NCBI GenBank assembly: GCA_025359805.1
Contig: JANYDU010000029.1
Location: forward strand, 14,341 to 78,340
Origin: Bacteroidota bacterium
Lineage (GTDB): Bacteria; Bacteroidota; Bacteroidia; UKL13-3
Length of the DNA: 64,000 bases
Direction: 5' to 3'
A program made the position numbers and the translations under genes. This document shows positions 1 to 17,217 of the stretch, in pieces. Within the stretch, counting starts at the first letter, position 1. The number at the start of each line of letters is the position of its first letter. The notes below the pieces were generated by a model. The model was not told where the DNA came from. It worked only from the letters and a program-made list of their open reading frames with translations, and made no database searches.

Positions 1-508
1 TATCATTAAAAGTTATTTTCAAACCTTTACCAATCACACGAACTGTTTCACACCAGTCGCGATTGTATTTTCTTTTTACGGTTTTGTCTTTCAACCAAAA
101 CCTTGCACTCCAAGAAGAATCAGTTCCAAGAGTTAGACCGAGCAAAGGCAAACCTGTTGTTGCAAAAACGGCAGGAGATATTCTTGTTTCAGCAGTAACA
201 TCATCTCTACTCATTCCCTGCCAACCTTCGGAAGGATGTGAATGAAGAAAACCAATTCCTTGTTTTCTTTCAGTAGCTATTCTCAAAACTCTTTCAAAAT
301 ATTCAGGCATGAAACCAACATTTCCGTGAACTTCCCTTTCACCATCAAGAGGGAAAATAACTTCGCTTAAAATTCCTGTAAATCTTTTACTGCCGCTACT
401 TGGAACATAAGTAGCAAAACATAAATCTTCATCACCATCCTCGCGAATCAGGTGATTGAATAATTGCTGATGAATTTCATCATTCATTACAACACTAAAT
501 TTTTTCAT
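1..508 (-). CDS. JAB/MPN+ (JAMM) metallopeptidase domain protein, N-terminal 169 aa only; the gene runs off the left edge (by family precedent possibly fused to an E1/ThiF-like domain)
   Basis: ATG at 508 overlaps the E2 stop (TAATG). Translation MKKFSVVMNDEIH...DEDLCF...GFLHSHPSEGWQGMSRDD carries the E...HxH...S..D JAMM signature (codons 200-244). It has no stop in the window, so it is missing from the ORF track. Confidence 0.7.
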   Translation of the reverse strand, partial: MKKFSVVMNDEIHQQLFNHLIREDGDEDLCFATYVPSSGSKRFTGILSEVIFPLDGEREVHGNVGFMPEYFERVLRIATERKQGIGFLHSHPSEGWQGMSRDDVTAETRISPAVFATTGLPLLGLTLGTDSSWSARFWLKDKTVKRKYNRDWCETVRVIGKGLKITFND

Positions 509-858
509 TACAATTTTGCTAATAGATTTTTGATGTGTGCGAAATAGGTTTTTACTTTTCTATCAGTTCTATTCCAGTCAGGAAAAGGTCTGCTCCAATA
601 CCTCCATTCGCCACCAAAGGGGCTTGCATGAATGTTATTCGGAGGTTCAACCCAATCCTGAACTCCAATAGATTTGAAATGTGGTCCAGGCGGGCAACTC
701 ATTGGGAAATCGTTTTGAACTTCAAAACCAATTTGTATTTTCTTTCCAATGTTCCGACCAACTGGAATTTCGTATTCAAACGAAACTTTCAAAGCATCTG
801 GCTCTTGGGTAGTAAACCCAAGAACCTTTAGCTCTGCGATAAAATCTGACTTTGCCAT
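508..858 (-). CDS. Minimal prokaryotic E2/UBC-like protein (116 aa)
   Basis: Starts 11 nt after the Ubl gene stop and overlaps the JAB gene start. UBC-like layout: N-terminal helix, beta-meander, FPMSCPPGPHF (like the E2 YPxxPP flap), NNIH (HPN-like) and a C-terminal helix. The context (multiubiquitin + JAB) is typical of prokaryotic E2 families. Confidence 0.55.
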   Translation of the reverse strand: MAKSDFIAELKVLGFTTQEPDALKVSFEYEIPVGRNIGKKIQIGFEVQNDFPMSCPPGPHFKSIGVQDWVEPPNNIHASPFGGEWRYWSRPFPDWNRTDRKVKTYFAHIKNLLAKL

Positions 859-869
859 AAGTGAAAGAT

Positions 870-1433
870 TTAGGAAACTGGTGTTTCACCACGAAATACA
901 CTTACAAACTTCAGTGCGGGACACTTCATTTTTATTGGAGTGGTTGGAGTATCTTTGTACGATGTTTGGCTACCATCATGATTGATTTGAACCAAATAAT
1001 AATCTGCCACTGGAGTAATCCCTGCCAACTCCAAAATTTGATTTGGAGTCAGTTCTTTTTGGTCAGTGGTTTCAGGTTCATCATCTACGGTATAATAAAA
1101 CACTTCGGGAGGTTTCGTTACAAAATGCTCAATCCCTTCCTTTGCTAAGTCAACCTTTTCATTTAGGTCAATCTTCTCAAAATCGCAATGCTTTAGCTTC
1201 TGATAAAGTGTGTGACACTCAACAGGAGTTTTACATGCTTTTTCAAGAATCTCTCTTCCAGTAACTATGTGATGGTCAAAAACGAAATAATCGTTATCAA
1301 CTTTCACTTTATACCTTTTACCTACAGAAGGTTTTTTGTCCAACTTGGTGTAAGCTTCCAAGTCAATTACCTCACCTACACCCTGTGCATCGGAGGTTTC
1401 ATTGTTTTGATTTTTGTTTTTGTCGTTTGACAT
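870..1433 (-). CDS. Tandem beta-grasp 'multiubiquitin'-type ubiquitin-like protein (187 aa, two Ubl repeats)
   Basis: Two ~70-aa repeats share a pattern: KRYKVKVDNDYFVFDHHIVTGREILEKA...IDLNEKVDLAKEGIEHFVTKP and FYYTVDDEPETTDQKELTPNQILELAGITPVADYYLVQ. This resembles the Multiubiquitin domain as I recall it. Confidence 0.65.
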   Translation of the reverse strand: MSNDKNKNQNNETSDAQGVGEVIDLEAYTKLDKKPSVGKRYKVKVDNDYFVFDHHIVTGREILEKACKTPVECHTLYQKLKHCDFEKIDLNEKVDLAKEGIEHFVTKPPEVFYYTVDDEPETTDQKELTPNQILELAGITPVADYYLVQINHDGSQTSYKDTPTTPIKMKCPALKFVSVFRGETPVS

Positions 1434-1653
1434 TTTATTTAAAATTTAAAAATTGTTTCCCCCAATTTTTACTGAAAAAATGCAGGAGGTTAGCAAGTTT
1501 CCAGAGCCGTTGTATTTTAATTGGAGGTTTTCCGAAAGGTGATAAGCCATCGCTTGAATTTACATAACTCAAAACCCTTTTCATCCAATTAACAACTGCA
1601 ATAGAAAACTGGATTTATTTTTTTAATGTCTATCTCTTATCTCATTTATTGTT

Positions 1654-1878
1654 TTAGCCCTTCGGTGGGTAATCATCATTTCCATAGGAATCCTTATCTC
1701 TAATTTGTCCGTTAGGTCTATGAATAACTACTTCCGATTGTTGATTAATTGCAATCTCACGGGCAATCTTAATTGCCTCTGATTGTGTTTCTACAACCTT
1801 TGTTACCTTGTCATTTTTTTCTCCTTTCACAGCCCATTGTTTGCCGTGCGGAACTACATGTTGATTCTTTTTGCTCAT
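1654..1878 (-). CDS. DUF2188 family small protein
   Basis: HVVPHGKQWAVKGE...TQSEAIKIAREIA...VVIHRPNGQIRDKDSYGNDDYPPKG matches the DUF2188 pattern. I start it at ATG 1878 (MSKKNQ) rather than the track's 1935, because a -7 box at 1901-1908 would lie inside the longer ORF. Confidence 0.7.
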   Translation of the reverse strand: MSKKNQHVVPHGKQWAVKGEKNDKVTKVVETQSEAIKIAREIAINQQSEVVIHRPNGQIRDKDSYGNDDYPPKG

Positions 1879-1900
1879 TGGTATATTTTTTAATTCGATG

Positions 1901-1908
1901 CAAATATA
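1901..1908 (-). promoter_or_regulatory. Bacteroidota-type -7 box (TATATTTG on the minus strand) upstream of the DUF2188/Ubl genes
   Basis: Exact TAnnTTTG match 22 nt upstream of ATG 1878. The nearest well-separated TTTG is 24 nt upstream, which is longer than the usual spacing. Confidence 0.35.
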
Positions 1909-1910
1909 AA

Positions 1911-1946
1911 GCAAAAATCTAAATATATCAAGCAAATCTAAATATA
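1911..1946. promoter_or_regulatory. Direct repeat GCAAA(AA)TCTAAATATA x2 in the divergent promoter region (candidate operator of the XRE regulator)
   Basis: Copies at 1911-1927 and 1932-1946 start 21 bp apart (two helical turns). They lie between the divergent DUF2188 and XRE genes. The -7 box at 1901-1908 is a third, truncated copy. Confidence 0.35.
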
Positions 1947-1967
1947 AATATCAACAATTTAGCAAAG

Positions 1968-1998
1968 TTTGTTTTTATGAGCATAATTCATACCTTTG
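1968..1998 (+). promoter_or_regulatory. Bacteroidota-type promoter of the XRE/ImmA pair (-33 TTTG, -7 TACCTTTG)
   Basis: TTTG at 1968-1971, a 19-nt spacer and TAccTTTG at 1991-1998, 25 nt before ATG 2023. This argues against the track's TTG start at 1996. Confidence 0.45.
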
Positions 1999-2022
1999 CC
2001 ACATGGTAAAAATCTCATTTCA

Positions 2023-2361
2023 ATGAAATCATTAGGCAAAACCTTAAAGGATTCAAGAGAGTTAATTCCTTTAACACTCAGGCAAGTTGAAGAAGCAACT
2101 GGAATTTCAAACGCTTATTTAAGTCAGCTTGAAAATGATAAAATCAAAAAGCCATCAGCGAATGTTCTCTACAAACTTGCAAGTATATACAACATAGAGC
2201 TTGATAGTTTACTGGTTGCTTCTGGAATAATAGAAAAGCAATCACCGAAAAAAAGCAAGTTGCTAAACACGATTGCATTATCTGCAGAAACAATGACAAG
2301 CGAAGAGGAGCAAGCATTGTTGGATTATCTTCGTTTTTTACGCCATAAGAAAAATGCTTGA
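2023..2361 (+). CDS. XRE-family helix-turn-helix transcriptional regulator (CapH-like architecture, ~112 aa)
   Basis: LTLRQVEEATGISNAYLSQLENDKIKKPSANVLYKLASIYNIELDSLL is a canonical Cro/C1-type HTH. A short C-terminal helical tail follows. The gene overlaps the downstream peptidase gene by 8 nt. Confidence 0.8.
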   Translation: MKSLGKTLKDSRELIPLTLRQVEEATGISNAYLSQLENDKIKKPSANVLYKLASIYNIELDSLLVASGIIEKQSPKKSKLLNTIALSAETMTSEEEQALLDYLRFLRHKKNA

Positions 2362-3253
2362 ACTACATTCCAAAAATGACATTGAAAAAATTTCTATTGA
2401 AATTTTAAGAGGCAGCAACAGTTTTGATGTTTTTCCAACCCCTATTGACCAAATTGTTTCTTATGCTGAACTTGTAGTTCGTAACGACATCGATGTTTCT
2501 AAAATTCATAACGACTATTTCTCAAAAGCAAGTGATGCACTAAGAAGAGCATTAACTAAAGTAAGAGGAGTATTAGATAGAAAAGAAAGGACAATTTATT
2601 TAGACTTGTCACAGGGTAAACCCAAACAAGGTTTTGTAAAACTCCATGAAGTAGGACATGATGTTTTGCCATGGCAAAAAAATGTTCATGACATATTAGA
2701 TGACGATGATGATTCATTGCATACTGACACTCACGAAGAATTTGAAGCAGAAGCGAATTATTTTGCATCTGCAACTCTTTTTCAACATGACAGATTTGTA
2801 ACAGAACTAAACAAACTAAGTTTGGGTATTGAATCTCCAATGCAACTTGCCAAAATTTTTGGAGCTTCCGTTCATGCTACATTAAGAAGATATATTGAAT
2901 GTTCTAAAAACAGATGTGCTTTAATTGTATTAGAAAATATAACTCCTAAAGGAATCCAACCAAAATGTTTTCTGCGAGACAAATTTCAATCTGATAAGTT
3001 TACCAAGACATTTGGGGATATCAATATTCCATTAGAATTGGGTTACACATGGGCTTTTGTTCAAGATTATTATCATAAGAGAAAATTTAAAAAGGACGGT
3101 TCAATAACTCTCTCAACCAATAATGGAGAAGCTGACTTTGTATATCACTTCTTCAATAATGGCTATAATGCCTTTGTTTTCTTATTCCCAATTGGGGAGA
3201 AGAAAAGTTCAAGAACGAAGATTATCATTACTGATAAGAGTTTTCAGCTATAA
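2354..3253 (+). CDS. ImmA/IrrE-family zinc metallopeptidase with a C-terminal extension (CapP-like architecture, 299 aa)
   Basis: HEVGH (HEXXH) at 2645-2659 is followed by EFEAEANYFASATLF, the ImmA/IrrE (DUF955) third-ligand motif. A ~150-aa C-terminal domain follows. The gene is translationally coupled to the XRE gene. Confidence 0.75.
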   Translation: MLELHSKNDIEKISIEILRGSNSFDVFPTPIDQIVSYAELVVRNDIDVSKIHNDYFSKASDALRRALTKVRGVLDRKERTIYLDLSQGKPKQGFVKLHEVGHDVLPWQKNVHDILDDDDDSLHTDTHEEFEAEANYFASATLFQHDRFVTELNKLSLGIESPMQLAKIFGASVHATLRRYIECSKNRCALIVLENITPKGIQPKCFLRDKFQSDKFTKTFGDINIPLELGYTWAFVQDYYHKRKFKKDGSITLSTNNGEADFVYHFFNNGYNAFVFLFPIGEKKSSRTKIIITDKSFQL

Positions 3254-3283
3254 TATTCATTTCCAACATTTGCCAGCAACCTT

Positions 3284-3349
3284 TATTTGCTGTCCTTTGT
3301 TTGACTTCAAACATTTGACACTTTTATCTATTTGATGTCTTTTGTTTGA
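3284..3349. promoter_or_regulatory. Imperfect 21-bp direct repeat TATTTG(C/A)TGTC(C/T)TTTGTTTGA x2, period 45 bp, upstream of abiEi (candidate autoregulatory operator)
   Basis: Copies at 3284-3304 and 3329-3349 match at 19/21 positions. Each is preceded by AACATTTG(C/A)C (3265, 3310), so the whole ~45-bp unit is duplicated. Confidence 0.3.
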
Positions 3350-3355
3350 TTATCT

Positions 3356-4135
3356 TTGCAATCTCAAATAAACAAGACCGTGGCAAAAGATTTCATAATA
3401 GAACGACTAAAAAAGGAATTCAAAGGAAGAGAAGCATTTTCCAGAGAAGAACTATTTGACTTCTACCGACATTTTGAACCTGAGTTGAAAGAGACAACTT
3501 TCAGATGGAGAATTTATCATCTCAAAAACAAACAGGTAATCACTACAATTTCAAGGGGGCTTTTTACGCTTTCATTCAAGCCAGTTTTTAAACCCGATGT
3601 TGAAGATGCTGAAAGAAAAATATTTTCAAAAATTGAAAAGCAATTTCCCACTCTAAAACTCTGCATTTGGTCAACCAAAATTGCCAACGAGTTTATGTTA
3701 CACATTCCTGGAAAATTCATCACAATTTTACAAGTTGAAAAAGAAGCAATAGAACCCGTTTACAGTTTTCTTAAAGACCAAAATTTTCGAAATGTTTTTT
3801 TTCAGCCAGAAGAAAAAGAAATTGAACGCTACATTTATGAAACCGAAACGGCAATAATATTACAACCTTTAGTTTCAAAATCTCCTACTCAAAAAGTAAA
3901 AAAGGTTGCGTCAACAACCCTTGAAAAGTTGATAGTAGATTTTTATTGCGACAAAAAACTTTTCGCTGCTTTTCAGGGAAGCGAATTTGTTCACATCATC
4001 AACAACGCATACAAAAGATATTCAATTGATTTCACCAAACTTTTTCACTATGCAAAAAGAAGAAGGAAAGAAACTGAACTTGTAGAATTTTTTTCAGATA
4101 AAACAGATATTCCAAATAGTATATTGAATGATTGA
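3356..4135 (+). CDS. AbiEi-like (type IV TA antitoxin / transcriptional regulator family) protein
   Basis: Sits immediately upstream of an AbiEii-type nucleotidyltransferase and overlaps it by 8 nt. The N-terminal winged-helix-like region is ...FSREELFDFY...TFRWRIYHLKNKQVITTISRGLFTL. The start is uncertain: TTG at 3356, no early in-frame ATG, and a TAtcTTTG box overlapping 3351-3358. Confidence 0.5.
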   Translation: MQSQINKTVAKDFIIERLKKEFKGREAFSREELFDFYRHFEPELKETTFRWRIYHLKNKQVITTISRGLFTLSFKPVFKPDVEDAERKIFSKIEKQFPTLKLCIWSTKIANEFMLHIPGKFITILQVEKEAIEPVYSFLKDQNFRNVFFQPEEKEIERYIYETETAIILQPLVSKSPTQKVKKVASTTLEKLIVDFYCDKKLFAAFQGSEFVHIINNAYKRYSIDFTKLFHYAKRRRKETELVEFFSDKTDIPNSILND

Positions 4136-5249
4136 CATTAAATCACTTTCGGCAGAATGGATTGCTGAGAAAAGAAATAAATACAGTAAAGACCCTAACT
4201 TAATGGAAAGCATGATTTATGCTTTGTATCTGTTAGAGCAGTTACAGTTAACAGGACTGGATTTTATTTTCAAAGGTGGAACAAGCTTGATTCTACTGAT
4301 GGAAGAACCTAAAAGGTTTTCAGTTGATATTGATATTATCATAAGCCCAAAAATTAGTCGTGAGGAGTTGGAAAAATATCTTTCAAAGATTGCTGATACA
4401 AGTGCATTCATAAGACTGGAATTGGACGAAAAGAGAAGTTACAATGGTGATATTCCTAAAGCACATTACAAATTTATTTATAACTCAAACTTTCCTAACA
4501 GAAATAAAGAGGGAAAAGTAATTTCTAATCCAGAAAGAGAAATTTTACTTGATATTCTTTTTGCAGACAATCATTATCCAACAGTTATTGAAAGAGCCTT
4601 AGAAACAGAATGGCTGTTACAAATTGACAAACCAGTAATTGTTAGAACTCCTGACATAAATTCAATTACAGGCGACAAGCTCACTGCATTTGCACCAAAT
4701 ACGACAGGTGTTCCTTACAACATGGAGAAGGAAAAGGAAATAATGAAGCAGCTATTTGATATTGGTTGCTTGTTTCATTTACTAACCGATATGGAAGTAT
4801 TCAAAAAATCTTTTACTGAATCAGCTAAAGGAGAAATCGCTTACCGACCAGAAAGGAAAATTGAATCAATAGAGCAAGTTCTAAGAGACACTATTGAAAC
4901 GGGACTGCTAATCGCAAGAAAGGACATCCTTAAAACAGATGATGAAAAAGCTAAGTATGGAGAAATAAATTTAGGCATCAATCAATTCAGACACTTTGTT
5001 TTCCTAGGCAGGTTTGACATTTTAGAAGCACAGGTAGCCAGTGCAAAAGCCGCTTATTTAGCAGCAATTGTTTTGACAGACCGCAAGGAAGTATTAATGA
5101 AGTTCAGCAAAGAAATTCCGTTGGCAGACTACTTAATAACAAATCCTGACTACAATTACTTGAACAAGAGATTAAAATTTGTGGCAGAGGGAGAAGCACT
5201 TTTTTATTGGTATCACACAATCAAATTACTTTATCCAACTAATGAATAA
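4128..5249 (+). CDS. AbiEii/AbiGii-family nucleotidyltransferase toxin (DUF1814)
   Basis: FIFKGGTSLILLMEEPKRFSVDIDIII is the GG(T/S)..(R)FS.D(I/L)D nucleotidyltransferase signature of AbiEii. The size (373 aa) and the pairing with an AbiEi-like gene fit the family. Confidence 0.8.
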   Translation: MIDIKSLSAEWIAEKRNKYSKDPNLMESMIYALYLLEQLQLTGLDFIFKGGTSLILLMEEPKRFSVDIDIIISPKISREELEKYLSKIADTSAFIRLELDEKRSYNGDIPKAHYKFIYNSNFPNRNKEGKVISNPEREILLDILFADNHYPTVIERALETEWLLQIDKPVIVRTPDINSITGDKLTAFAPNTTGVPYNMEKEKEIMKQLFDIGCLFHLLTDMEVFKKSFTESAKGEIAYRPERKIESIEQVLRDTIETGLLIARKDILKTDDEKAKYGEINLGINQFRHFVFLGRFDILEAQVASAKAAYLAAIVLTDRKEVLMKFSKEIPLADYLITNPDYNYLNKRLKFVAEGEALFYWYHTIKLLYPTNE

Positions 5250-5288
5250 GAAGGCCACCACACAAAAAAATACACCCTTCCTTTTTTT
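5250..5288 (+). terminator. Weak intrinsic terminator after abiEii
   Basis: GAAGG (5250-5254) pairs with CCTTC (5276-5280) and is followed by a T7 run (5282-5288). The 21-nt loop is large, so this is tentative. Confidence 0.3.
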
Positions 5289-5337
5289 ACAAATTTATTT
5301 TTCCCACCGCACGGGTTTAGTGGGCAATCGGACGGAC

Positions 5338-5513
5338 GGTGCTTCGAATGTAAATTGCTTCGGACAAAGTGTGTTCGGACTTGAAATACTTGCGCTTCGG
5401 GAGAAAAGAACGGCATCAGCTAACAGCACCTACAAAAAATTGGCGGTTCAGTGGTTAAATGAAGCTTTGTGCTTCGTATCAAGTTCAGTGGTGGCAGACA
5501 GTTTAGTGCTTCG
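5338..5513 (+). repeat. Cluster of short direct repeats: (G)TGCTTCG-type motif x6 and GTTCAGTGGT x2 in a non-coding stretch
   Basis: GTGCTTCG at 5339, 5469 and 5506; TGCTTCG at 5356; variants GTGTTCGG at 5371 and GCGCTTCGG at 5392. TTCGGAC x2 at 5359 and 5374. (G/A)GTTCAGTGGT at 5445-5455 and 5482-5492. Confidence 0.8.
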
Positions 5514-5743
5514 AAATCGCCAACTTCTTGTAGCTGCAAACCGTTAAAACGAACATTCTTTACTACAATAGAAGACAAGACCAATGAACTCTATCTGGTT
5601 GAAGTTGCTGAAGACAATGGCGTTTCATTGACAACTCACTTCGTTTATCAGGTTTACGGAAAAACAAATGGAATTAAACTGCCACTAACACGCTGCTGCT
5701 GCTATGGCCGTTTTTATTTTAAAATTTAACCCAATCAAAAAAC

Positions 5744-5772
5744 TATTTCATCGCTTTAATAATATCTACAAA
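5744..5772. repeat. 29-bp exact copy of the tpiA 3' end (att-like core), followed by a decayed tpiA-like relic to ~5807
   Basis: TATTTCATCGCTTTAATAATATCTACAAA is identical to 6520-6548. Its reverse complement still encodes FVDIIKAMK*. The flanking 5773-5807 aligns imperfectly with 6549-6596 (gattgc; tgctcc-tcaatatc). Confidence 0.9.
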
Positions 5773-5828
5773 GCTGTGCGATTGCTTAACTATTGCTCCT
5801 CAATATCAGTGTTATTGTTAATTTACCG

Positions 5829-5844
5829 ATACTTGCACAAGTAT
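5829..5844. promoter_or_regulatory. 16-bp palindrome ATACTTGCACAAGTAT upstream of the MNT/HEPN pair (candidate operator)
   Basis: Perfect 7+7 inverted repeat with a 2-bp centre, 28 nt before ATG 5872. Confidence 0.35.
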
Positions 5845-5871
5845 TCTTAAAATCATAGTTTCGTTTACGAT

Positions 5872-6174
5872 ATGCAAAGCATCATTGAAAATAATATTGA
5901 TAAAATAAAAGCATTATGCACAAGCTATAATGTGAAATCATTATTTGCTTTTGGCTCGGTATGCAGTGATAGATTTAACGACCAAAGTGATATTGATTTA
6001 TTGATTGCTTTTAACACAATGGATTATGGAGATTATGCCGATTCTTACTTTGCTCTTGCTGATAAATTTGAAGAATTATTTAAACGACCTGTTGATTTAA
6101 TAACAGATAAATCATTATCAAATCCATATTTTATTGATTCATTAAATAGAACAAAAACCTTGATTTATGAATAG
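5872..6174 (+). CDS. Minimal nucleotidyltransferase (MNT/MntA-like antitoxin)
   Basis: LFAFGSVCSDRFNDQSDIDLLI carries the GS...(R)...DxD pol-beta nucleotidyltransferase motif. It is 100 aa and overlaps the HEPN gene by 8 nt. Confidence 0.8.
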   Translation: MQSIIENNIDKIKALCTSYNVKSLFAFGSVCSDRFNDQSDIDLLIAFNTMDYGDYADSYFALADKFEELFKRPVDLITDKSLSNPYFIDSLNRTKTLIYE

Positions 6175-6499
6175 TGAAATTCAAAAGTTTTTATTTGACA
6201 TTAAGGTATCAATTGACTCCATCGAAACTTATCTTGGGGGCAAGAGAGATTTTAACATATACAAAGCGAATAAAATGCTTAGAAGAGCCGTTGAACGTGA
6301 ATTTGAGATTATTGGTGAAGCATTAAATCATATTGAAAAAGTTGATTCGGGTGTTGAAATTTCCAGTAAAAAACAAATTATCGGAATGCGAAACAGAGTA
6401 ATTCATGGTTATGATAAAATTGATGATGAAATAGTTTGGGGAACAATAGTTAGACATTTGCCAGTTCTTAAAATTGAGATTTCAAAACTGATTCAATAA
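6167..6499 (+). CDS. HEPN-domain (DUF86, HepT-like) toxin
   Basis: RNRVIHGY is the Rx4-6H HEPN motif. The 110-aa helical protein is paired with an MNT gene. Confidence 0.8.
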   Translation: MNSEIQKFLFDIKVSIDSIETYLGGKRDFNIYKANKMLRRAVEREFEIIGEALNHIEKVDSGVEISSKKQIIGMRNRVIHGYDKIDDEIVWGTIVRHLPVLKIEISKLIQ

Positions 6500-6518
6500 A
6501 TCAACCCAAATATTTCTT

Positions 6519-7283
6519 TTATTTCATCGCTTTAATAATATCTACAAAACTTCTTGATTGCAATGCTGCTCCACCTACTAATGCTCCATCAATATCGGGT
6601 GCCGAAAATAACTCAACAGCATTATCTGCTTTTACACTTCCACCATATTGAATGGTTAAATGATTTGCAACATCAACACCATACTTTTCTCTTACCAAAT
6701 TTCTAATATACGCATGCACTTCTTGCGCTTGCGCTGTGCTAGCAGTTTTACCGGTTCCTATTGCCCAAACAGGCTCATAAGCAATTACTATATTTGAAAA
6801 TTGTTCTTTAGTTAAATGAAATAACCCTTCGCTCACTTGCGCATGTAATACCTCAAAATGTTTGTTGGCTTCACGTTCTTCTAAAGTTTCGCCACAGCAA
6901 TAAATAGCTGTTAAATTATTAGCTAAAACAGCATCTACTTTTTTAGCCAACCAATCATTGTGTTCGTTAAAATATTGTCTGCGTTCGCTATGTCCAATAA
7001 TAATATATTTGGCACCACAACTTGCAATCATTGCTGCACTTACTTCTCCTGTGTATGCGCCACTCGCATGGTTGCTGCAGTTTTGCGCACCCACTTGTAT
7101 ATTTGATATTTCGGCCACCATTCGGCTAATGGCATTAATATGTGTGAAAGGAGGAATGATAACAACTTCTGCGCTTCCATTATATTCGTCCTTAACCATG
7201 TTGCTTAATTCTGAAACCAAAGCCATTCCTTCATCAAAGGTTTTGTTCATTTTCCAGTTTCCGGCTATTATTTTTTTTCTCAT
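6519..7283 (-). CDS. tpiA: Triosephosphate isomerase
   Basis: MRKKIIAGNWKMN, IIGHSERR and AYEPVWAIGTGKTA are canonical TIM motifs; 254 aa. Confidence 0.95.
   Translation of the reverse strand: MRKKIIAGNWKMNKTFDEGMALVSELSNMVKDEYNGSAEVVIIPPFTHINAISRMVAEISNIQVGAQNCSNHASGAYTGEVSAAMIASCGAKYIIIGHSERRQYFNEHNDWLAKKVDAVLANNLTAIYCCGETLEEREANKHFEVLHAQVSEGLFHLTKEQFSNIVIAYEPVWAIGTGKTASTAQAQEVHAYIRNLVREKYGVDVANHLTIQYGGSVKADNAVELFSAPDIDGALVGGAALQSRSFVDIIKAMK
6520..6548. repeat. Second copy of the 29-bp repeat, inside the functional tpiA 3' end
   Basis: Identical to 5744-5772. It covers the last 9 codons of tpiA and two bases of its stop codon. Confidence 0.9.
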
Positions 7284-7390
7284 GTTTAAAAGATTAAAAG
7301 TTTACAAACTTGATAGTTACAAGGTTGAAAGATTAAAAGAATGCTATGATATTTTATAAATTTTCATCATCATATTTTCTCATCCACACA

Positions 7391-8584
7391 TCAAACCGGC
7401 TTTTCCCAAAAACGATATTTGGCTGATTGATCATACACAGCTTTTAAAATCTCCTTATCAATATCAGTAAAAGGAACGTTCCTTCTTGCATAAACGGCTT
7501 CGGCAGTTTTATAAAATTTATTGAGTACAAATGTTTCGAAGCCTTGTGCACCACCCCACGCAAACGATGGAATAAAGTTACGAGGAAATCCTGAACCAAA
7601 GATATTTGCTCCAACCCCCACAACAGTGCCTGTATTAAACATGGTATTAATGCCACACTTTGAATGATCTGCCATCATCAATCCACAAAAAGTTAATCCT
7701 GTTTTTTCAAAACGTTCTGTTTTGTAACTCCAAAGTTTAACCTCATCGTAAGTGTTTTTTAAATTTGAACTATTGGTATCAGCACCCAAATTACACCACT
7801 CTCCAATTACAGCGTTTCCTAAAAATCCATCATGACCTTTATTTGAATAGCCTAAAAATACCACGTTACTCACTTCTCCACCAACTTTACAATACGGACC
7901 AACAGTTGTTGCCCCATAAATTTTTGCGTCCATTTTTAAACCCGCATGCTCGCACAAAGCAAACGGTCCACGTATTTTACATCCTTCCATTACCTCCGCA
8001 TCTTTGCCAATATAAATTTTACCTGTTAATGCATTTAGTATAGAGAATTCAACTTTTGCTCCTTCTTCAATAAAAATATTTTCAGGATTTAAAAATTGAT
8101 TGGTTGACGAAATGGGTTGAGATTTTTTTCCTTTGGTTAGTAATTCAAAATCTTCTTCAATGGCTTGTGCATTCTTAGAAAAAATATCATAGGGATGAGT
8201 AATTTTTAAGATATTCTCTGCTGATGTTTCTATCTTTTTAGCAGAAATATTTTCTTCAGAAAATGTTACAACATCACTTACCCTTGCAGCTATTAATAGG
8301 TTTCCTTTTACAATGGTTTCTCCTACTTTTAAATGAGCAATTTCGTTTACCAGTTGAACATTTGGGCAAACAGTTCCATTAATAAAAATATTATCGTTGG
8401 TGGTTAGTAAAGGAAATTTTTTCTGTAAATAATCTTGAGTAAAATAAGATAAAGAAGTATTTAAATACTTCGACCATTTTTGGGCAATGGTTAAAATGCC
8501 TATACGAATTTCTGCCGAAGGCCTTGTAAAAGTAAAAGGCAGCAGATTAACACGATCGTTGCTATCAAAAAGTATATAATTCAT
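7391..8584 (-). CDS. GlmU-like putative sugar nucleotidyltransferase / left-handed beta-helix acyltransferase
   Basis: Hexapeptide-repeat C-terminal half (...IGKDAEVMEGCKIRGP...IYGATTVGPYCKVGGEVSN...). I start it at ATG 8584 (MNYILFD), because 8585-8635 contains the rpmE terminator hairpin. Confidence 0.65.
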   Translation of the reverse strand: MNYILFDSNDRVNLLPFTFTRPSAEIRIGILTIAQKWSKYLNTSLSYFTQDYLQKKFPLLTTNDNIFINGTVCPNVQLVNEIAHLKVGETIVKGNLLIAARVSDVVTFSEENISAKKIETSAENILKITHPYDIFSKNAQAIEEDFELLTKGKKSQPISSTNQFLNPENIFIEEGAKVEFSILNALTGKIYIGKDAEVMEGCKIRGPFALCEHAGLKMDAKIYGATTVGPYCKVGGEVSNVVFLGYSNKGHDGFLGNAVIGEWCNLGADTNSSNLKNTYDEVKLWSYKTERFEKTGLTFCGLMMADHSKCGINTMFNTGTVVGVGANIFGSGFPRNFIPSFAWGGAQGFETFVLNKFYKTAEAVYARRNVPFTDIDKEILKAVYDQSAKYRFWEKPV

Positions 8585-8592
8585 CTCGCGTA

Positions 8593-8626
8593 TAAAAAAA
8601 TAAAGCTCTTCAAAACGAAGAGCTTT
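8593..8626 (-). terminator. Rho-independent terminator of rpmE
   Basis: 10-bp stem AAAGCTCTTC (8602-8611) / GAAGAGCTTT (8617-8626) with a 5-nt loop, followed on the minus strand by a T7 run (8594-8600). Confidence 0.6.
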
Positions 8627-8644
8627 ACCATGCAAATATGTACG

Positions 8645-8896
8645 TTATTTTTTTTGTGCGTATCTCTTTTTAAATTTATCAATTCTACCGGCTGTATCCA
8701 CCAACATGTGTTGTCCGGTAAAGAATGGATGAGACTTATTTGAAATCTCTAATTTGTATAAAGGATACTCGTTTCCGTCTTCCCACTTTGTTGTTTCTTT
8801 AGTTTCTACAGCCGAACGGGTCATAAAAGTATAATCGTTTGACATATCTTTAAACACTACTAATCTATAGGTTTTTGGATGAATTTCTGGTTTCAT
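8645..8896 (-). CDS. rpmE: 50S ribosomal protein L31, type B (no Cys zinc ribbon)
   Basis: [17 protein letters not shown]...HPFFTG...[14 protein letters not shown]; 83 aa with no cysteines. Confidence 0.9.
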
Positions 8897-8918
8897 AATT
8901 AGATAAAATTTGGGAGGG

Positions 8919-8949
8919 CAAAACTAAACCTTTTTCAATTAAATGCAAA
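8919..8949 (-). promoter_or_regulatory. Consensus Bacteroidota promoter of rpmE (-33 TTTG, 19-nt spacer, -7 TAGTTTTG)
   Basis: On the minus strand: TTTG (8946-8949), 19 nt, then TAGTTTTG (8919-8926), about 22 nt before ATG 8896. Confidence 0.5.
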
Positions 8950-9069
8950 TCATTCGTGAAAAATTTAACTGTCAGCTTATTAAGCCCGATAAAAATCCCT
9001 TTTTGGGAAATAGCGATAAGTGTAATAATTTGCCACTCACAAAAAGGCTTAATACCATTGTGTAAATAT

Positions 9070-9573
9070 ATGTTACAACAAACACAAATTTTAGATGACG
9101 CGCAGGTTAAACAAATTTTAAAGCGTATGGCTTATCAAATTTATGAAAATAATTTTGGCGAAAAAGATCTCATCATAGCTGGAATAGAAGGACGAGGCTC
9201 GAGCATAGCAGAATTACTTTTTGAAGAGTTGTCTAAAATTTGCAAAATAAAATTACATTTATTAGAGATTCACTTAAATAAAAAAAATCCTACTGGAGGA
9301 AGTGTTTTATTGAGCGATGAAAAAATAAATATTGCGGATAAAAATGTAGTTGTTGTTGACGATGTATTAAACACTGGAAAAACTTTGGTGTATGGTTTAA
9401 CTCCTTTCATCAGAAACAAAGCCAAGCAAATTAGAGTAGCTGTTTTGGTAGATCGCAATCATAAAAACTTTCCTATAAGTGCCGATTTTATTGGAATTTC
9501 ACTCTCCACAACTTTACAAGAACATATTACCGTATTGATTGAAAAGAAAAAAGTGAATGTATATTTGAGTTGA
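9070..9573 (+). CDS. Phosphoribosyltransferase family protein (PyrR-like)
   Basis: VVVVDDVLNTGKT is a PRPP-binding loop and MLQQTQILDDAQVKQILKRMAYQIYE is a PyrR-like N-terminus. I prefer ATG 9070 over the track's 8956, because the upstream 38 residues look non-coding. Confidence 0.6.
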   Translation: MLQQTQILDDAQVKQILKRMAYQIYENNFGEKDLIIAGIEGRGSSIAELLFEELSKICKIKLHLLEIHLNKKNPTGGSVLLSDEKINIADKNVVVVDDVLNTGKTLVYGLTPFIRNKAKQIRVAVLVDRNHKNFPISADFIGISLSTTLQEHITVLIEKKKVNVYLS

Positions 9574-9577
9574 AAAA

Positions 9578-12500
9578 TTAAAAGCTCCTTCCCACTCCAA
9601 TCATCCATCTATAATTTAAGTTTTTACCATCTTCATAGGGTGCGTTGCTCAAATACAATGGCATATCAAAACGAATGGTTAATGGTTTAATATCATCTAA
9701 TACACCCCATTTTTTTATGGTAAGTGCAAAGCCTGCACCAGCACTTGCAAGTAAGCCTGTATTCAGTGCTGTAAAAGATGTTGGCGTAATCGTTTCCGAT
9801 ATCATTGGTTTATTGCTTTTTAAAATACCTCCATCAAAAAATAAATAACTATCCATATGAAAATATTTTAGGAATCCTTTTGCTGGAATGGGAATAAATT
9901 TATCATAATCTAATTCAAAATTAATGGCTGCTCCAGTATTTCCTTTATATAAAAAATATTGATTGTTATTGGCATCATTTACCGGCATTAAATAGCCTGC
10001 ATATCCTCTAATATTTAATCCTCCTCCTTGTTGAAAATGATTTGTATTTGCGCCATAAGTAAATAATTGTTGAGGAATAATTCCTGCCGAGCGTGCAAAT
10101 TTATTATCAGCCATTTCCTCTGGATTTGCTCCTGCTAAATACAATTGTGATTCGGGTGCTGCATTACTCCCTGTCATGTATTGCGCAAATACTCTCGATT
10201 TTAATTCGAGCTTTGAAATATTATTATTTTGTACCGCATTAACGTAAACTGTTGCATAATCAAAATCAGAATAAATAGCTGAAGTGCGCATACCTAATAA
10301 AATTTTTCCTGAGCCTAAATTGCCTTTGTAATTTTTTTCTACTTCAAGATTTAAGGTATTGTTCCATTGATCATGAGAGGAAATGTTTGGATAGAAATTA
10401 AACGTTGGATAATAAGCAGGTAAATAATACAATTGAACCCTTCTCATGCTTTTTGCAAATACCCTGAATGTAGTATTGTGATGTGTTTTTTCGATTCCAA
10501 TTTTATTCATCAGTAACCCATCCAACAAACGTGATTGAACAAATACATCTGCAAATTTCCCAACTCGTGTTTGATAGGATGCACTATAATGAACAGGGTA
10601 AATAGGCGCATTATTTTTATAAATACTATCTACATAATTATTTCCTAAACCTGTATTGTACCATGCAGTAACTTTAAACACATGTTTTTGGTTCATGTAG
10701 TTTCCGTTAAAATGCAAGCCCACTTTTACGCCATCATAATTATTATACCACACATCTGGCCTCCATTTTAGGATATAATGTTTTCGGTCTAAAGGATTTT
10801 TTATTTGGTGATCAAACGTAAAAAGTGTTGGACATTTTAAACTATTATTTAGTTGGTTGATATCCGCTAAACGGTAGGTTGGATCGATGATTACGTTTTC
10901 GATTTTGCTATTTTCTGGTAGCGTAATTTTTGCAGTATACGTTGGATTTAATATTCCCCACCCTTTCCAAACGGGTAAAATTTCAGCATCTGATTGCTTT
11001 GCGAAATAGGTATTTGGGATAATAAATTTATAAGAAGAATCTTTAGTTTTAACTGTAAAATCAAGAGGCATTTGCATATCACCAATACGCTCAAAATTGA
11101 TTTTATATTTGTTGTCTTTTAATCTTTCAACCTTCTCAACTTTGTAGTCAATACTTTTCGTTGTTTCAATCCATTGATCAAAAAACCAATTCAAATCAAC
11201 ATGCGTATAATTGATAATAGAGTTTCTAAAATCATCAAAATACGGATGGCAAATTTTCCATTGACTGAAATAATGTTGCATGGCTTTTAAAAACAAACTA
11301 TCCCCCAACACATATTGCAAATTATAAAGCATAGTTGCCGTTTTATAATATACATGTCCGTAGCCACCACCATGATTTAATGCTCCACCAAAATCATCGC
11401 TATGCGTATTTAATGTTGCATCATTTTGGTTGATGGCATCACGTATATAACCTAAATAAACGGTTTGATCCATAGTAGATAATGGTGTGTAATATTTGCC
11501 AACATATTCCCTACTTTTTTTGGTTGATACATCTCCAAAAAATTTAGTCATACTCCAATTGGTTAAAAATTGTGTGAAGCCTTCATCTAAACTTGCACGA
11601 TAGGTTTCGTTATTTCCTACCATTCCAAAAAACCAATTATGACCAACTTCATGTGCAAACAAACCATAATATCCTGGACTTAATCCTCCATCCAAAGTAA
11701 GCATCGGGTATTCCATTCCATCTCGTGCATCAGCCACAATCATTTTTGGATACGCATATGCACCAATATCTGTTGAGTAGGTTCCAATAATTTTTGAAGT
11801 GAAAGAAGAGGCATCTTGCCAACGGCTTGCGTGTGGCTCTTGTGCGAGGGATATGCAACTTACTTCATGTCCGTTTGAAAGCATAATTTTTGTTTCATCG
11901 ATTCTAAAAGTAGGATCCGCAACCCAAGCAAAATCATGCACATTTATGGCTTTAAATTTCCATGTTTTTGTAGTTCCATTTGCAATAATTATTTCGGAAG
12001 GTTTTTCGTTTAGAGGTTTATCTTTAAAATTTTTAATATCCAATTTTGAGCGAAGTTCTTCTGGCAAAACTTCTGTTCTATTTTGTAAAACTCCTGTGGC
12101 ATCCATCACGTAGTTATTTGGGAAAGTAAGTTCCACATCATAGCTACCAAAATCTCCATAAAATTCTTTTCCTAAATGCTGGTCGGTTTCCCAACCAAAT
12201 TTTCTATCATACACACAAATACGCGGATACCAATGCACACCATCGTATTGTTTATTTCCCCAAGAATCTTTAAATGTTTTCATTCTCCTGCGTTGATCTC
12301 CGCCTGCATCAAAATACGTTTTGAATTTTATCTTAAGAGTTATGGAGTTATTTGGAAGCAGGGGATTTTCAAGTTGTACTTTCATAATGGTATTATCGAT
12401 GAATAGAATCTTGCCTTCAATTCCTGAAAATGTATTGATAAAATCATCTTGAATTCCTGATGAATTTGGTTTGCCTGAACGGTGTTCTTCACGCGTATAA

Positions 12501-12895
12501 ACTTTATCATTACACTTAAGAATAGATACGCCAAGAATTTCAGTTCCTTTTCCATCCGCTTCATACTTTCCAAATTTTTGTTTGAAATGATTGGCTAAGT
12601 TTAATTGTTCCAAATACGCACCTTTTATAAATGCGTTTTGATATAAATGAAAATATACAAATGAGAGTGTATCGGGCGAATTATTATAGTAAGTGAGTTC
12701 TTCCTCTCCATCAACAATATCTGTTTTATCATCAACAGAAGCTTTTATTTTATAAGCTACATCTTGCTGCCAATAACCTTCAAAAGGTTTGCGATTTTTC
12801 CAGTAAAAAGGATTGGAAGCAGAACGATATTCATTTTCCTGCGCAGATAATTGTATGATGAAAAGGAATGATAGAAAAAGTAAGGTGTTTCTCAT
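9578..12895 (-). CDS. Secreted M1-family (gluzincin) metallopeptidase fused to a C-terminal Omp85-like beta-barrel (1105 aa)
   Basis: Signal peptide MRNTLLFLSFLFIIQLSAQ. HEVGHNWF...LDEGFTQF (HEXXH+E) lies at ~11580-11660. The C-terminal ~400 aa are beta-rich, with GGGLNIRGY (~10001-10027) and a terminal aromatic residue (...VGRSF). Confidence 0.75.
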   Translation of the reverse strand: MRNTLLFLSFLFIIQLSAQENEYRSASNPFYWKNRKPFEGYWQQDVAYKIKASVDDKTDIVDGEEELTYYNNSPDTLSFVYFHLYQNAFIKGAYLEQLNLANHFKQKFGKYEADGKGTEILGVSILKCNDKVYTREEHRSGKPNSSGIQDDFINTFSGIEGKILFIDNTIMKVQLENPLLPNNSITLKIKFKTYFDAGGDQRRRMKTFKDSWGNKQYDGVHWYPRICVYDRKFGWETDQHLGKEFYGDFGSYDVELTFPNNYVMDATGVLQNRTEVLPEELRSKLDIKNFKDKPLNEKPSEIIIANGTTKTWKFKAINVHDFAWVADPTFRIDETKIMLSNGHEVSCISLAQEPHASRWQDASSFTSKIIGTYSTDIGAYAYPKMIVADARDGMEYPMLTLDGGLSPGYYGLFAHEVGHNWFFGMVGNNETYRASLDEGFTQFLTNWSMTKFFGDVSTKKSREYVGKYYTPLSTMDQTVYLGYIRDAINQNDATLNTHSDDFGGALNHGGGYGHVYYKTATMLYNLQYVLGDSLFLKAMQHYFSQWKICHPYFDDFRNSIINYTHVDLNWFFDQWIETTKSIDYKVEKVERLKDNKYKINFERIGDMQMPLDFTVKTKDSSYKFIIPNTYFAKQSDAEILPVWKGWGILNPTYTAKITLPENSKIENVIIDPTYRLADINQLNNSLKCPTLFTFDHQIKNPLDRKHYILKWRPDVWYNNYDGVKVGLHFNGNYMNQKHVFKVTAWYNTGLGNNYVDSIYKNNAPIYPVHYSASYQTRVGKFADVFVQSRLLDGLLMNKIGIEKTHHNTTFRVFAKSMRRVQLYYLPAYYPTFNFYPNISSHDQWNNTLNLEVEKNYKGNLGSGKILLGMRTSAIYSDFDYATVYVNAVQNNNISKLELKSRVFAQYMTGSNAAPESQLYLAGANPEEMADNKFARSAGIIPQQLFTYGANTNHFQQGGGLNIRGYAGYLMPVNDANNNQYFLYKGNTGAAINFELDYDKFIPIPAKGFLKYFHMDSYLFFDGGILKSNKPMISETITPTSFTALNTGLLASAGAGFALTIKKWGVLDDIKPLTIRFDMPLYLSNAPYEDGKNLNYRWMIGVGRSF

Positions 12896-13063
12896 ATACC
12901 AACAAAGTAAAACAAGAGATGCTTAATAGCAAAAAAATAATTAGCCACACCAACCAATCATCCATAATAAATAATGAATTTGATTTTACTTTGATATTTT
13001 TTTTCAATTAATATAATCTGCGAAATCTGTGGCTAAAATTGCCTCCTCATTTTGTATCAGATA

Positions 13064-13666
13064 CTAATTATCATTCACATAAAATTTCCCCCAAGCCAAT
13101 AAATCTCCACCAATAGTTACCATAGCAAAATAATATAAGTTGGCATACAAACCATCTCTGTAAAACACAATTGAATTGCCTTGAAAAGGAAGTGTTTTTT
13201 TTACCAACTGCCCATTATGATCAAAAATATACATGCTAACTGGGTTGTTGCTTGGATTATTAAAAATAATTTTGCAAGGCTGATCATTAAAAGGATTTGG
13301 ATATAGTAAATATTTTTTTGGATTTCCTGTTGATGTGCTGATGATTTGTGAATAACCATAAACACCCAAATTTAATCGGTAATAGTTATTTGTTGATGAA
13401 GATGGCGTTGTATGATCCCATTGATAAGTAAGTATAGAAGAGCTTGCCCCACAAACTCCAGGATAAGTGTATATAGAGCTAAATGAAAATGAATCTGTTG
13501 ACCATTCTACTGTAACAGAACTACAGCTAAAACCAGGGTTAATGCTCCATTGCAAATTCACATCACCATTTCCTGGAAAAGCAATAAATGAGTTTAATGC
13601 ACTGCTTTGTGAAAAGCTGCTAAATGAAACGAAGACTAAAATAGTTGTAAAAAATTTTCTCACCAA
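13064..13666 (-). CDS. Secreted protein with a T9SS (Por) C-terminal sorting domain
   Basis: Signal peptide MVRKFFTTILVFVSFSSFSQ. The C-terminal LLYPNPFNDQ...VSMYIFDHNGQLVKK... is typical of T9SS CTDs. Confidence 0.65.
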   Translation of the reverse strand: MVRKFFTTILVFVSFSSFSQSSALNSFIAFPGNGDVNLQWSINPGFSCSSVTVEWSTDSFSFSSIYTYPGVCGASSSILTYQWDHTTPSSSTNNYYRLNLGVYGYSQIISTSTGNPKKYLLYPNPFNDQPCKIIFNNPSNNPVSMYIFDHNGQLVKKTLPFQGNSIVFYRDGLYANLYYFAMVTIGGDLLAWGKFYVNDN

Positions 13667-13832
13667 ACAAATTTATACTTTGATATTTGTAATCGTATTA
13701 AAAAAATAATATCAATTCGAAAAAATTGAGAATTAGATACAATTTAAACTAACTGATTTGTGCTGACTAAAATCATTGATAATTTTATCAATTGGTATAA
13801 ATTTGCTGCCTGTCCATAAAAGAATTTAGCGT

Positions 13833-14759
13833 ATGGAAAGAAATAACTATTTGGTTTTAGCATACTATTATTACACCACCATAAATAACCCAACTGAGTT
13901 TACTGCTCAGCATCTCAAATATTGCAAAAATATTGGCTTAAGAGGGCGCATTTATATCGCTCCAGAAGGTATAAACGGTACTGTTAGCGGAACCAGTGAA
14001 GTTTGTGAACAATACATGAACGAGTTAAAATCAGACTCTCGTTTTAGTGGAGTTGAATTTAAAATAGATGAGTTTGATGGGCATGCATTTAACAGGATGC
14101 ATGTGCGAGAAAAAACAGAAATTGTTCATTCGGGTTTGCGCAATCCAAATGAAATTGATCCCACAAAAGAAACTGGAAAACATTTGAGAGGTGAGGAGTT
14201 CTTAGCATTTAAAGATGAAGAAGATGTGGTGATTTTAGATGTGAGATCAAATTACGAAACACGTTTAGGAAGATTTAAAAATGCTGTAACACTTGATATC
14301 GAAAACTTCAGAGAATTTCCTCAAAAAATTGCTGAATTAGAAAAATATAAAGATAAAAAAATAGTAACTGTTTGTACAGGTGGAATTAAATGTGAGAAAG
14401 CCTCAGCTTTATTAATTAAAGAAGGATTTAAAGATGTGTATCAATTACACAATGGAATTATTGGCTACGCAAAAGATACAGGAGGAAAAGATTTTGACGG
14501 AATGTTATATGTGTTTGACGGAAGGGTTTCGGTTCCAGTTAATACCGTAAATCCAACCAATATAGCAGAATGTATTAAATGCAAATCCACTACACACCGA
14601 AGTTTAAACTGTGCAAATGTGGAATGTAATGAACAATTTAATATGTGTGAAAGTTGCGCTGAAGAAATGGAAGGAGCTTGCAGCGAAGCCTGCAAAGTAG
14701 CTCCAGGAAAGCGCGAATACAATGGTACTGGGTATTATACAAGACCATCTATAGATTAG
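13833..14759 (+). CDS. trhO: Rhodanese-domain tRNA uridine(34) hydroxylase (UPF0176/YceA family)
   Basis: YIAPEGINGTVSG, the rhodanese active-site loop CTGGIKCEKA and a Cys-rich C-terminal tail. Confidence 0.8.
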   Translation: MERNNYLVLAYYYYTTINNPTEFTAQHLKYCKNIGLRGRIYIAPEGINGTVSGTSEVCEQYMNELKSDSRFSGVEFKIDEFDGHAFNRMHVREKTEIVHSGLRNPNEIDPTKETGKHLRGEEFLAFKDEEDVVILDVRSNYETRLGRFKNAVTLDIENFREFPQKIAELEKYKDKKIVTVCTGGIKCEKASALLIKEGFKDVYQLHNGIIGYAKDTGGKDFDGMLYVFDGRVSVPVNTVNPTNIAECIKCKSTTHRSLNCANVECNEQFNMCESCAEEMEGACSEACKVAPGKREYNGTGYYTRPSID

Positions 14760-14857
14760 TTTCAAAAAAAGTGTGTACGCATTTTGCCATTATCCAATTA
14801 CATTTTGAGTTCTGAAGTTGTAGGTCTATTTTCGGTTTGTTTAATAGTAGCTAAATA

Positions 14858-15799: not shown

Positions 15800-15826
15800 T
15801 TGTGTTAGAAACCAATTGCACAAAAA

Positions 15827-15857: not shown

Positions 15858-15878
15858 ATACATATATTTTTATCTGTA

Positions 15879-17186: not shown

Positions 17187-17217
17187 TGAATTAAATATTT
17201 GCTTTATAATGAGTAAA

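Follow-up and report, generated by a model that had tools for sequence, protein, structure and literature searches.

Insertion with long target duplication is a class of event described for restriction-modification gene complexes (Nobusato et al. 2000, Gene 259:99; Furuta, Abe & Kobayashi 2010, PMC2853133), in which no mobility gene is present and the flanking repeats are long, variable and unique in the genome, sometimes overlapping the 3' ends of genes (PMC2853133). To be assigned to this class by Furuta et al., an insert should be missing from a related genome with aligned flanks, should involve no other mobile element, and should be smaller than 20 kb and carry a complete addictive module; the duplication should be longer than 30 bp, consist of target sequence, and be genome-unique. 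In the literature searched, no published description of such an insertion was found for toxin-antitoxin pairs. Here we analyze an mntA-hepT toxin-antitoxin cassette that lies between two copies of the tpiA 3' end in a 64,000-nucleotide stretch of DNA (the window) from a Bacteroidota bacterium of the UKL13-3 lineage (GenBank assembly GCA_025359805.1, contig JANYDU010000029.1). In the labels used below, G denotes the genomes compared and L denotes loci or contigs; the genome of the window is G000, the window itself is G000:C23:14341-78340, and the assembly, a metagenome-assembled one, comprises 62 contigs with a total of 2,465,589 bp and is 84.5% complete.

Toxin-antitoxin pairs are among the most mobile of prokaryotic genes, although the movement of free-standing pairs, which lack a transposase or integrase, is poorly understood. 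Integrative elements that occupy the 3' end of a protein-coding gene and provide it with a replacement tail are exemplified by phage 21 and e14, both in icd of Escherichia coli. As to the cargo, the type VII HepT/MntA (HEPN/MNT) system, represented by SO_3165/SO_3166 of Shewanella oneidensis, is said to have been described by Yao et al. in 2020.

The tpiA tail duplication and the cassette it encloses

The functional tpiA of the window (6519-7283, minus strand) is intact and encodes 254 amino acids (Pfam TIM, E=3e-98), and roughly its last 75 nt are found again on the far side of the cassette. The 29-mer TATTTCATCGCTTTAATAATATCTACAAA occurs at 5744-5772 and 6520-6548 with 0 mismatches, both copies being found on the plus strand. 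Read with the gene, i.e., on the minus strand, the proximal copy (6520-6548) comprises two bases of the TAA stop codon and the last nine codons of the functional tpiA, and the distal copy (5744-5772) forms a relic TAG stop together with base 5743. Next to the distal copy lies an inner relic arm (5773-5807, minus strand), frame-broken and devoid of a start codon, which aligned to the tpiA coding stretch at 6549-6596 (minus strand) with nine substitutions, a 1-nt deletion and a 12-nt deletion, the alignment closing at a common TCAATATC. The whole duplication is therefore 5744-5807 versus 6520-6596, or 64 versus 77 nt. No third copy of the 29-mer was found in the window at up to 3 mismatches (shuffles matching: 0/100), or in the whole assembly at up to 5 substitutions. 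Among the tails of 29 relatives, the 29 nt are peculiar to the G000 tpiA, with 3 differences in the same-genus G003; thus, general conservation does not account for the identity of the repeats. A second copy of the tpiA tail within 9 kb downstream was seen in 0/87 other tpiA loci, where the best score was 15, as compared to at least 29 here. Regarding an RNA or tRNA target, Rfam returned only two chance-level matches in positions 1-20000 of the window (E about 0.7-1, far under the gathering score), and the window is free of tRNA genes.

The duplication is a mosaic, with 0/29 changes in the exact block and then 9/36 changes plus the two deletions in the inner arm. The difference in substitutions was significant by the Fisher test (p=0.003), and the Poisson chance of encountering no change in 29 nt at the inner-arm rate was 7e-4; even decay of a once-identical relic was therefore a poor fit.

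The only genes between the repeats are mntA and hepT, in an insert of 0.71 kb. The mntA gene (5872-6174, plus strand) encodes a minimal nucleotidyltransferase antitoxin of 100 amino acids (PF18765, Polbeta, E=2e-12; PF01909, NTP_transf_2, E=6e-11), and hepT (6167-6499, plus strand) encodes a HEPN RNase toxin of 110 amino acids (PF01934, HepT-like, E=6e-21). The two overlap by 8 nt, in the order of antitoxin and then toxin, and their translations contain the respective catalytic motifs, namely FGSVCS...DIDLL, a GS...DIDLL motif, in MntA, and RNRVIHGY, an Rx4H motif, in HepT. Judged by these domains and motifs, the mntA-hepT pair is an intact type VII toxin-antitoxin system, and in size and module the insert agrees with the definition of Furuta et al.

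The ends of the cassette were informative in themselves. On the left, a degenerate end motif, GTTATTGTTAATTT (5811-5824, plus strand), matches the family consensus GTTRTAAC-CAATTG at 9/14 positions, and is followed by a conserved cassette promoter region (5831-5863, plus strand) that consists of the palindrome ACTTGCACAAGT (5831-5842) and a putative Bacteroidota -7 box, TAGTTTCG (5856-5863), the latter assigned from the TAnnTTTG consensus. It is at this promoter region that the homology of the G000 cassette with those of G003 and G041 begins. On the right, the stub ATCAAC (6500-6505, plus strand) is the sole remnant of the family right end motif, CAACTG-GTTAYAAC, and the rest of the palindromic element is missing; thus, no imperfect-palindrome attC site is present in the window 3' of the cassette, where only ATCAAC follows hepT. 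The end motifs are 3 nt from the relic on the left and 14 nt from the tpiA stop on the right. Since the cassette's own end motifs abut both repeats, the inserted unit would be the cassette itself, with no room for a lost integrase, and since the left motif is degenerate and the right one is a stub, the cassette would not have arrived via a clean reaction at its own site.

That DNA was inserted downstream of tpiA is indicated by comparison of gene order. In at least 11 same-family genomes or contigs the order is L31, glmU-like, tpiA and a conserved gene for a 1452-aa protein, and the distance from tpiA to this last gene, about 50-130 bp in the family relatives, is 7.8 kb in G000. The gap holds other cargo in other genomes, namely surface proteins in G013, and a LuxR-type gene and two type IX secretion system (T9SS) proteins in G003. 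On these gene orders, the tpiA-to-1452-aa gap is a genuine variable hotspot.

Several claims of a preliminary description of this DNA could be evaluated from these results. The exact 29-bp duplication was confirmed, and so was its restriction to two copies in the assembly; the diverged, indel-bearing tpiA relic proved real, and the bracketed DNA indeed contains a toxin-antitoxin pair and no recombinase, as seen by Pfam. The notion of tpiA as an integration hotspot held for the variable gap downstream of the gene, but not for its tail, which is not a recurrent att site (the 0/87 loci above). The end motifs touching the repeats argue against the islet being the remnant of a larger, integrase-bearing element. 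The comparison of tpiA-downstream regions that had been proposed yielded cassette-free loci at the level of both family (at least 11) and genus (L132 and L134, below), but none from the same species.

Overall, we favor, at slightly better than even chance, the reading that the 0.71-kb mntA-hepT cassette came to the tpiA stop by an insertion with long target duplication in which no recombinase took part. Taken on its own, the locus is an ordinary example and leaves the picture of tpiA and of the toxin-antitoxin pair as it was.

Related cassettes and their targets

MntA sequences 70-90% identical to that of the window were found at 80 loci in other Bacteroidota and a few Desulfobacterota, with a matching HepT in 71/80, which makes the pair a widely travelled module. 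Flanking direct repeats scoring at least 22 were present in 15/61 related cassettes for which both flanks were available, the window's included; the 99th percentile of mismatched pairs, taken as control, was a score of 13. Most of the 15 are arrays in which an element of 100-300 nt is repeated before each cassette. The array of L059 adjoins valS, and in L064, which belongs to G043, the unit (C68, C29, C1, C3, C146) is 250 bp long and occurs in at least 43 copies, in co-oriented arrays with a spacing of 1-4 kb, each copy ending in a TAnnTTTG promoter box and preceding a different gene or gene pair. A dispersed, REP-like (repetitive extragenic palindrome) origin of the flanking repeats was considered as well; it is true of G043, but not of G042, in which the copies are local, and not of the tpiA repeat. 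In the Prolixibacteraceae array of L089, the repeated inter-cassette element contains two copies of group II intron domain V-VI (4366-4424 and 5876-5934; Rfam RF00029, 54-60 bits, over the gathering score), located upstream of the cassettes. Group IIC introns target attC sites, and these remnants recall them.

Many relatives share a left motif, GTTGTAAC-CAATTG, about 60-75 nt before the ATG, and a right motif, CAACTG-GTTACAAC, directly after the hepT stop, the right being the reverse complement of the left. The left and right motifs covary between loci (GTTGCAAC/GTTGCAAC, GTTATAAC/GTTATAAC, GTTGTAAC/GTTACAAC and GTTGTAGC/GCTACAAC), and the strict patterns were present on both sides at 6/62 loci, the background being 1e-4 per scanned window. 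Halves of an attC-like hairpin would look like these covarying end motifs.

In L123, the isolate genome of Sunxiuqinia dokdonensis DH1, the cassette is located between two copies of a 129-bp stretch, of which the right copy comprises the last 73 nt of a convergent gene for a 666-aa CHU_C/T9SS surface protein together with some 55 nt of the sequence that follows the gene. Again the repeats are mosaic, with an identical block of 55 nt and a block of 75 nt that is about 75% identical. On its left the inserted unit retains 75 nt of the palindromic element, and on its right only a stub of 26 nt, as would be expected had a circle been cut open within that element.

Within the genus of the window organism, three species contain the cassette, viz., G000, G003 and G041 (the same as G001), each with different junctions. 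The G041 contig reads, in order, the 1452-aa gene, 140 bp, the last 14 codons and stop of an open reading frame (ORF) of 60 amino acids, the mntA promoter, mntA, hepT and the contig end, so that the right side of the cassette is missing from the assembly. L134, a cassette-free metagenome contig 98.6% identical to G041, has the 60-aa ORF intact. By this comparison, the G041 relic is a 41-nt tail of the ORF, in which the outer 30 nt equal L134 and the 11 junction-proximal nt have 3 mismatches, greatly exceeding the background of 1.4%. The ORF itself is conserved and cysteine-rich (MKEKECIVCNK...CPQH...), has no Pfam match, and lies between tpiA and the 1452-aa gene in genus relatives (L032:17958-18140, L132:6077-6259, L133:3661-3843, L134:4186-4368); neither G000 nor other genera have it.

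The mntA of G003 is 90% identical to that of G000 in amino acids and 86% in nucleotides, and hepT is absent, leaving mntA as an orphan antitoxin there. To its right are the 60-aa ORF, a hairpin and tpiA. The cassette-free metagenome contig L132, 96-99% identical to the G003 flanks, has the order tpiA, hairpin, 60-aa ORF, 101 bp and 1452-aa gene. Relative to L132, a 5.6-kb block of G003 (a LuxR-type regulator, two T9SS-tailed proteins and mntA) replaces the 101 bp (L032:12368-17958, L032 being the G003 locus, versus L132:6259-6359), and one of its junctions coincides exactly with the stop codon that ends the 60-aa ORF (TAA versus TAG). A possible tpiA relic upstream of the G003 mntA gave, among several tests made, a weak match with a score of 20 and a shuffle p of 0.024, and was not relied on.

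Taken together, related cassettes are flanked by tail duplications of other target genes, the 60-aa ORF in G041 and the CHU_C gene in L123, and this recurrence of the same geometry, shown by sequence comparison, supports a recombinase-free insertion in the window. Because the tails are those of different genes, the target-like arm would be local DNA and not a fixed attP. The mosaic tails in the three independent cases point to recombination between non-identical copies, and not to simple fill-in of staggered cuts.

Proposed origin and rival explanations

The following course of events may be envisaged. The cassette would come from an integron-like array, having been opened in its palindromic attC-like site, most of which would subsequently be lost. 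In circular or looped form, and already carrying a non-identical tpiA tail, the cassette molecule would pair with the resident tail, and a Campbell-type crossover would occur within the 29 identical bases, most likely through host homologous recombination. The functional tpiA would thereby keep a complete tail, and the other tail, now beyond the cassette, would be a dead relic; the addictive toxin-antitoxin pair may then stabilize the insertion. We infer the mosaic to be a crossover between two non-identical tails, since a single crossover with a tail borne on a circle predicts an identical block at the exchange and a foreign arm beside the cassette, as seen.

A number of points weigh against this account. 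The exact part of the duplication, 29 bp, is slightly below the 30-bp threshold of Furuta et al. (PMC2853133), which only the diverged 64/77-nt alignment exceeds. Both junctions rest on one metagenome-assembled contig, a same-species empty site is not at hand, and the polarity of the insertion rests on the genus- and family-level comparison of sequences. The two frame-breaking deletions in the relic arm must be put down to decay after the insertion, or else to a donor whose arm had already become a relic, and, as for restriction-modification modules, a first tail duplication has to be presupposed. The Campbell-type step and its dependence on host recombination are conjectural, and in G041 the tail duplication is presumed, a full copy of the ORF to the right of hepT being only a prediction.

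The geometry had first been read as site-specific integration. In the classical form of this route, a tyrosine recombinase acting in trans (candidate: the Xer/integron-integrase-like C17 enzyme) would use the tpiA tail as an att or secondary site for a cassette circle, the 29 bp being the identity segment, the diverged arm the attP arm, and the cassette a cis-mobilizable unit. The core with its diverged, target-like arm is indeed a textbook att footprint, and that part of the preliminary description stands; neither a dedicated integrase nor a fixed att site is supported. The complementary, covarying end motifs of the family and its arrays between palindromic attC-like elements in other Bacteroidota also speak for this route, as does a palindromic attC-like element 3' of the AbiE pair (5417-5552, plus strand; start CAGCTAACAG, end AACCGTTAAAA) that ends 190 nt left of the relic, belongs to a family of at least 7 copies in G000, and identifies the region downstream of tpiA as a cassette array in decay. 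The assembly has only two tyrosine recombinases, on C17 and C43, and no serine recombinase. The C43 protein is XerC/D-like and located beside hpf and tuf; the C17 protein (345 aa; C17:49823-50860 = L216:324-1361) scored 222 bits against NF040815, a model of 'site-specific tyrosine recombinase/integron integrase' with a cut-off of 220, and is encoded 5 kb from an attC-like cassette array. Against the integron-integrase model TIGR02249, however, it scored 197 bits, under the cut-off of 265, with the match split in two, and like the C43 enzyme it is on a contig other than C23. No IntI integrase exceeded the TIGR02249 cut-off in G000 or in five other cassette-bearing genomes. No recombinase lies between the repeats or on C23:1-21000, which covers the 20 kb on the left as far as the contig reaches, where the preliminary description had called for a search for an integrase and a third 29-mer, and regarded the lack of both as contrary to its proposal; neither was found there. 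Moreover, the 29-mer lacks the GTTA/TAAC-type core of the family sites and has no third copy in the genome, and the attC-like site is nearly all lost, when integron-type insertion at a secondary site retains the site and makes no duplication. With the duplicated tail unique among the tpiA loci and related cassettes carrying the tails of different genes, we regard site-specific integration as unlikely.

A local rearrangement with no mobile intermediate was also considered, in which the relic would be the old native tpiA tail, either left when a donor cassette and a foreign tpiA entered by one homologous and one illegitimate join, or produced by tandem duplication and subsequent deletion, the identity of the 29 nt then being due to gene conversion at a later time or to a recombination event that ended in the tail. 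The tpiA tree places G000 outside its genus, while the adjacent glmU-like gene falls inside with 95/94 support, the first 16 nt of the relic arm are nearer, by eye, to the genus-type tail (11/16) than to the resident one (8/16), and the 86% nucleotide identity between the G000 and G003 mntA would suit a long residence at the locus. However, the approximately unbiased (AU) test does not reject monophyly of G000 with the genus for tpiA (p=0.18); thus, horizontal transfer of tpiA, although its tree is discordant, was not adopted as the source of the mosaic. The outer relic arm is nearer to the resident tpiA (18/19 versus 17/19, also by eye), and a homologous plus an illegitimate join predicts inner identity and stop-proximal divergence, the opposite of what was observed. 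Since local rearrangement needs extra steps and leaves unaccounted for the same geometry around related cassettes with other targets, it too appears unlikely. Lastly, an assembly artefact would have joined two strain variants via common tpiA-tail k-mers. The assembly is fragmented and incomplete, as detailed above, and among the contigs searched none independent of G000 spanned both junctions (window 5448-8054). Logan contigs L234-L237, from runs SRR23617308 and SRR20627849, match the C23 flanks at 99.96-100%, but end at C23:13297, 13381, 19788 (in the attC-like element) and 22394, so that the repeats are spanned by none from these runs; an exact scan of metagenome contigs for a 26-nt part of the 29-mer gave no match, the nearest tpiA relatives in metagenomes were 83% identical, and searches for proteins exactly equal to those of tpiA, MntA, HepT, the glmU-like gene and DUF6577 found no record. 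Nevertheless, the relic runs 35 nt past the 29-mer, frame-broken and indel-bearing, and is not an allele of a living tpiA, the same geometry exists in the isolate genome L123, and the close match of the Logan contigs to the flanks also speaks against an artefact, which is highly improbable.

Should the recombinase-free mechanism prove correct, it would account for the founding of new hotspots beside essential genes by defence and addiction modules. The window cassette is a member of an integron-like family, inserted outside that system. A broader generalization, which we offer as no more than a tentative and rather doubtful one, is that Bacteroidota integron-type cassettes, at least those of MntA-HepT, have a second, recombinase-independent mode of spread, in which an excised cassette opened at its hairpin acquires or retains a short tail of a neighbouring gene and, by host homologous recombination, homes to that gene tail in other cells. 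If true, conserved housekeeping tails such as that of tpiA would be portable landing pads for selfish toxin-antitoxin modules, and the signature left would be an 'identical core plus diverged arm'.

Neighbouring features and comparison with known systems

Leftward from the relic are a 190-nt stretch, the attC-like element, a DUF6577-AbiEii pair, a helix-turn-helix (HTH) and M78 peptidase pair and DUF2188, and farther left a multi-ubiquitin, E2-like and JAB-E1 operon; outside the window follow the start of the 1452-aa gene (C23:8663-13021) and then plsY. The content of C23:1-14400 includes cytochrome c peroxidase, MbnP, malate dehydrogenase, CoA transferases, ClpS, PlsY and the 1452-aa protein. 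The second element proposed earlier to have accreted at the site, with the Ubl, CapH/CapP-like and AbiE genes, is indeed a block separate from the cassette in the same gap. This 6.35-kb block is bracketed, just outside its outward-facing gene ends, by a perfect 21-bp inverted repeat, AAAAATAAATTTGTAAAAAAA, with its right arm at 5282-5302 (no strand assigned) and its left arm at C23:13288-13308 (outside the window, L001), in which the Logan contig end at 13297 falls. The arms could be terminal inverted repeats or a common terminator-like sequence; no target duplication was seen at the pair. The 190-nt stretch (5553-5743) contains an open frame (...TTIEDKTNELYLVEVAEDNGVSLTTHFVYQVYGKTNGIKL...) that looks protein-like and lacks a plausible start codon, and is not a convincing gene; it may be the remnant of an earlier cassette. 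A second CTAACAC...GTTTTTA pair occurs at 5686-5716.

The elements of the attC-like family are about 130 nt long, start with (C/A)TAACAG and end with AACCGTTA. Besides the window copy, those of G000 are at C28:120-270 and 3435-3560, C17:55754-55893 and 56651-56712, C53:5005-5150 and C25:21469-21520, and others were found at L092:1330-1460 and L207:6295-6430. They have a covarying long-range stem with compensatory changes in 7/9 pairs and a variable number of internal GTTCAGTGG / GTGCTYCG modules; copies are 86% identical across distant Bacteroidota, and none matched Rfam. In G000 they follow cassettes, in gene orientation, and on C28 two of them bracket a three-gene block (319, 78 and 597 aa) that is defence-cassette-like by its translations only. 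Downstream of the C17 recombinase, in the same orientation, is a series of small genes with two such elements between them (C17:55754-56838, contig end). With these features, the elements resemble attC sites belonging to an integron-like system of Bacteroidota. In G043, the recombinase on C172 is partnered by a 383-aa ORF, judged to be an IS91-like transposase from its translation alone.

In comparison with the known systems, the locus shares with restriction-modification insertions a small addictive module that lacks a mobility gene and lies between direct repeats of local target DNA, the repeats being tens to hundreds of bp long, genome-unique, different from site to site and sometimes situated over a gene 3' end. 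It differs in its cargo, a HepT/MntA pair of an integron-like cassette family with truncated cassette ends, and in its repeats, which are mosaics of an identical and a diverged block with an exact block of 29 bp. As with phage 21 and e14 in icd, the target gene is intact and the displaced tail diverges past an identical core; unlike them, the element is 0.7 kb, has no integrase in cis or nearby, and shows target reuse in 0/87 loci. The genes themselves, with Pfam MNT and HepT-like domains, GS...DxD and Rx4H motifs and overlapping reading frames in the order antitoxin then toxin, are no different from type VII HepT/MntA, and the interest is in their route to the locus. Finally, the relatives resemble integron cassettes in their co-oriented arrays between palindromic elements of 100-300 nt with covarying AAC...GTT-type ends. 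In contrast to integrons, no IntI-type integrase was above the cut-off in any genome tested, and the window cassette, which has no palindromic site, is flanked by a target duplication that integron recombination does not make.

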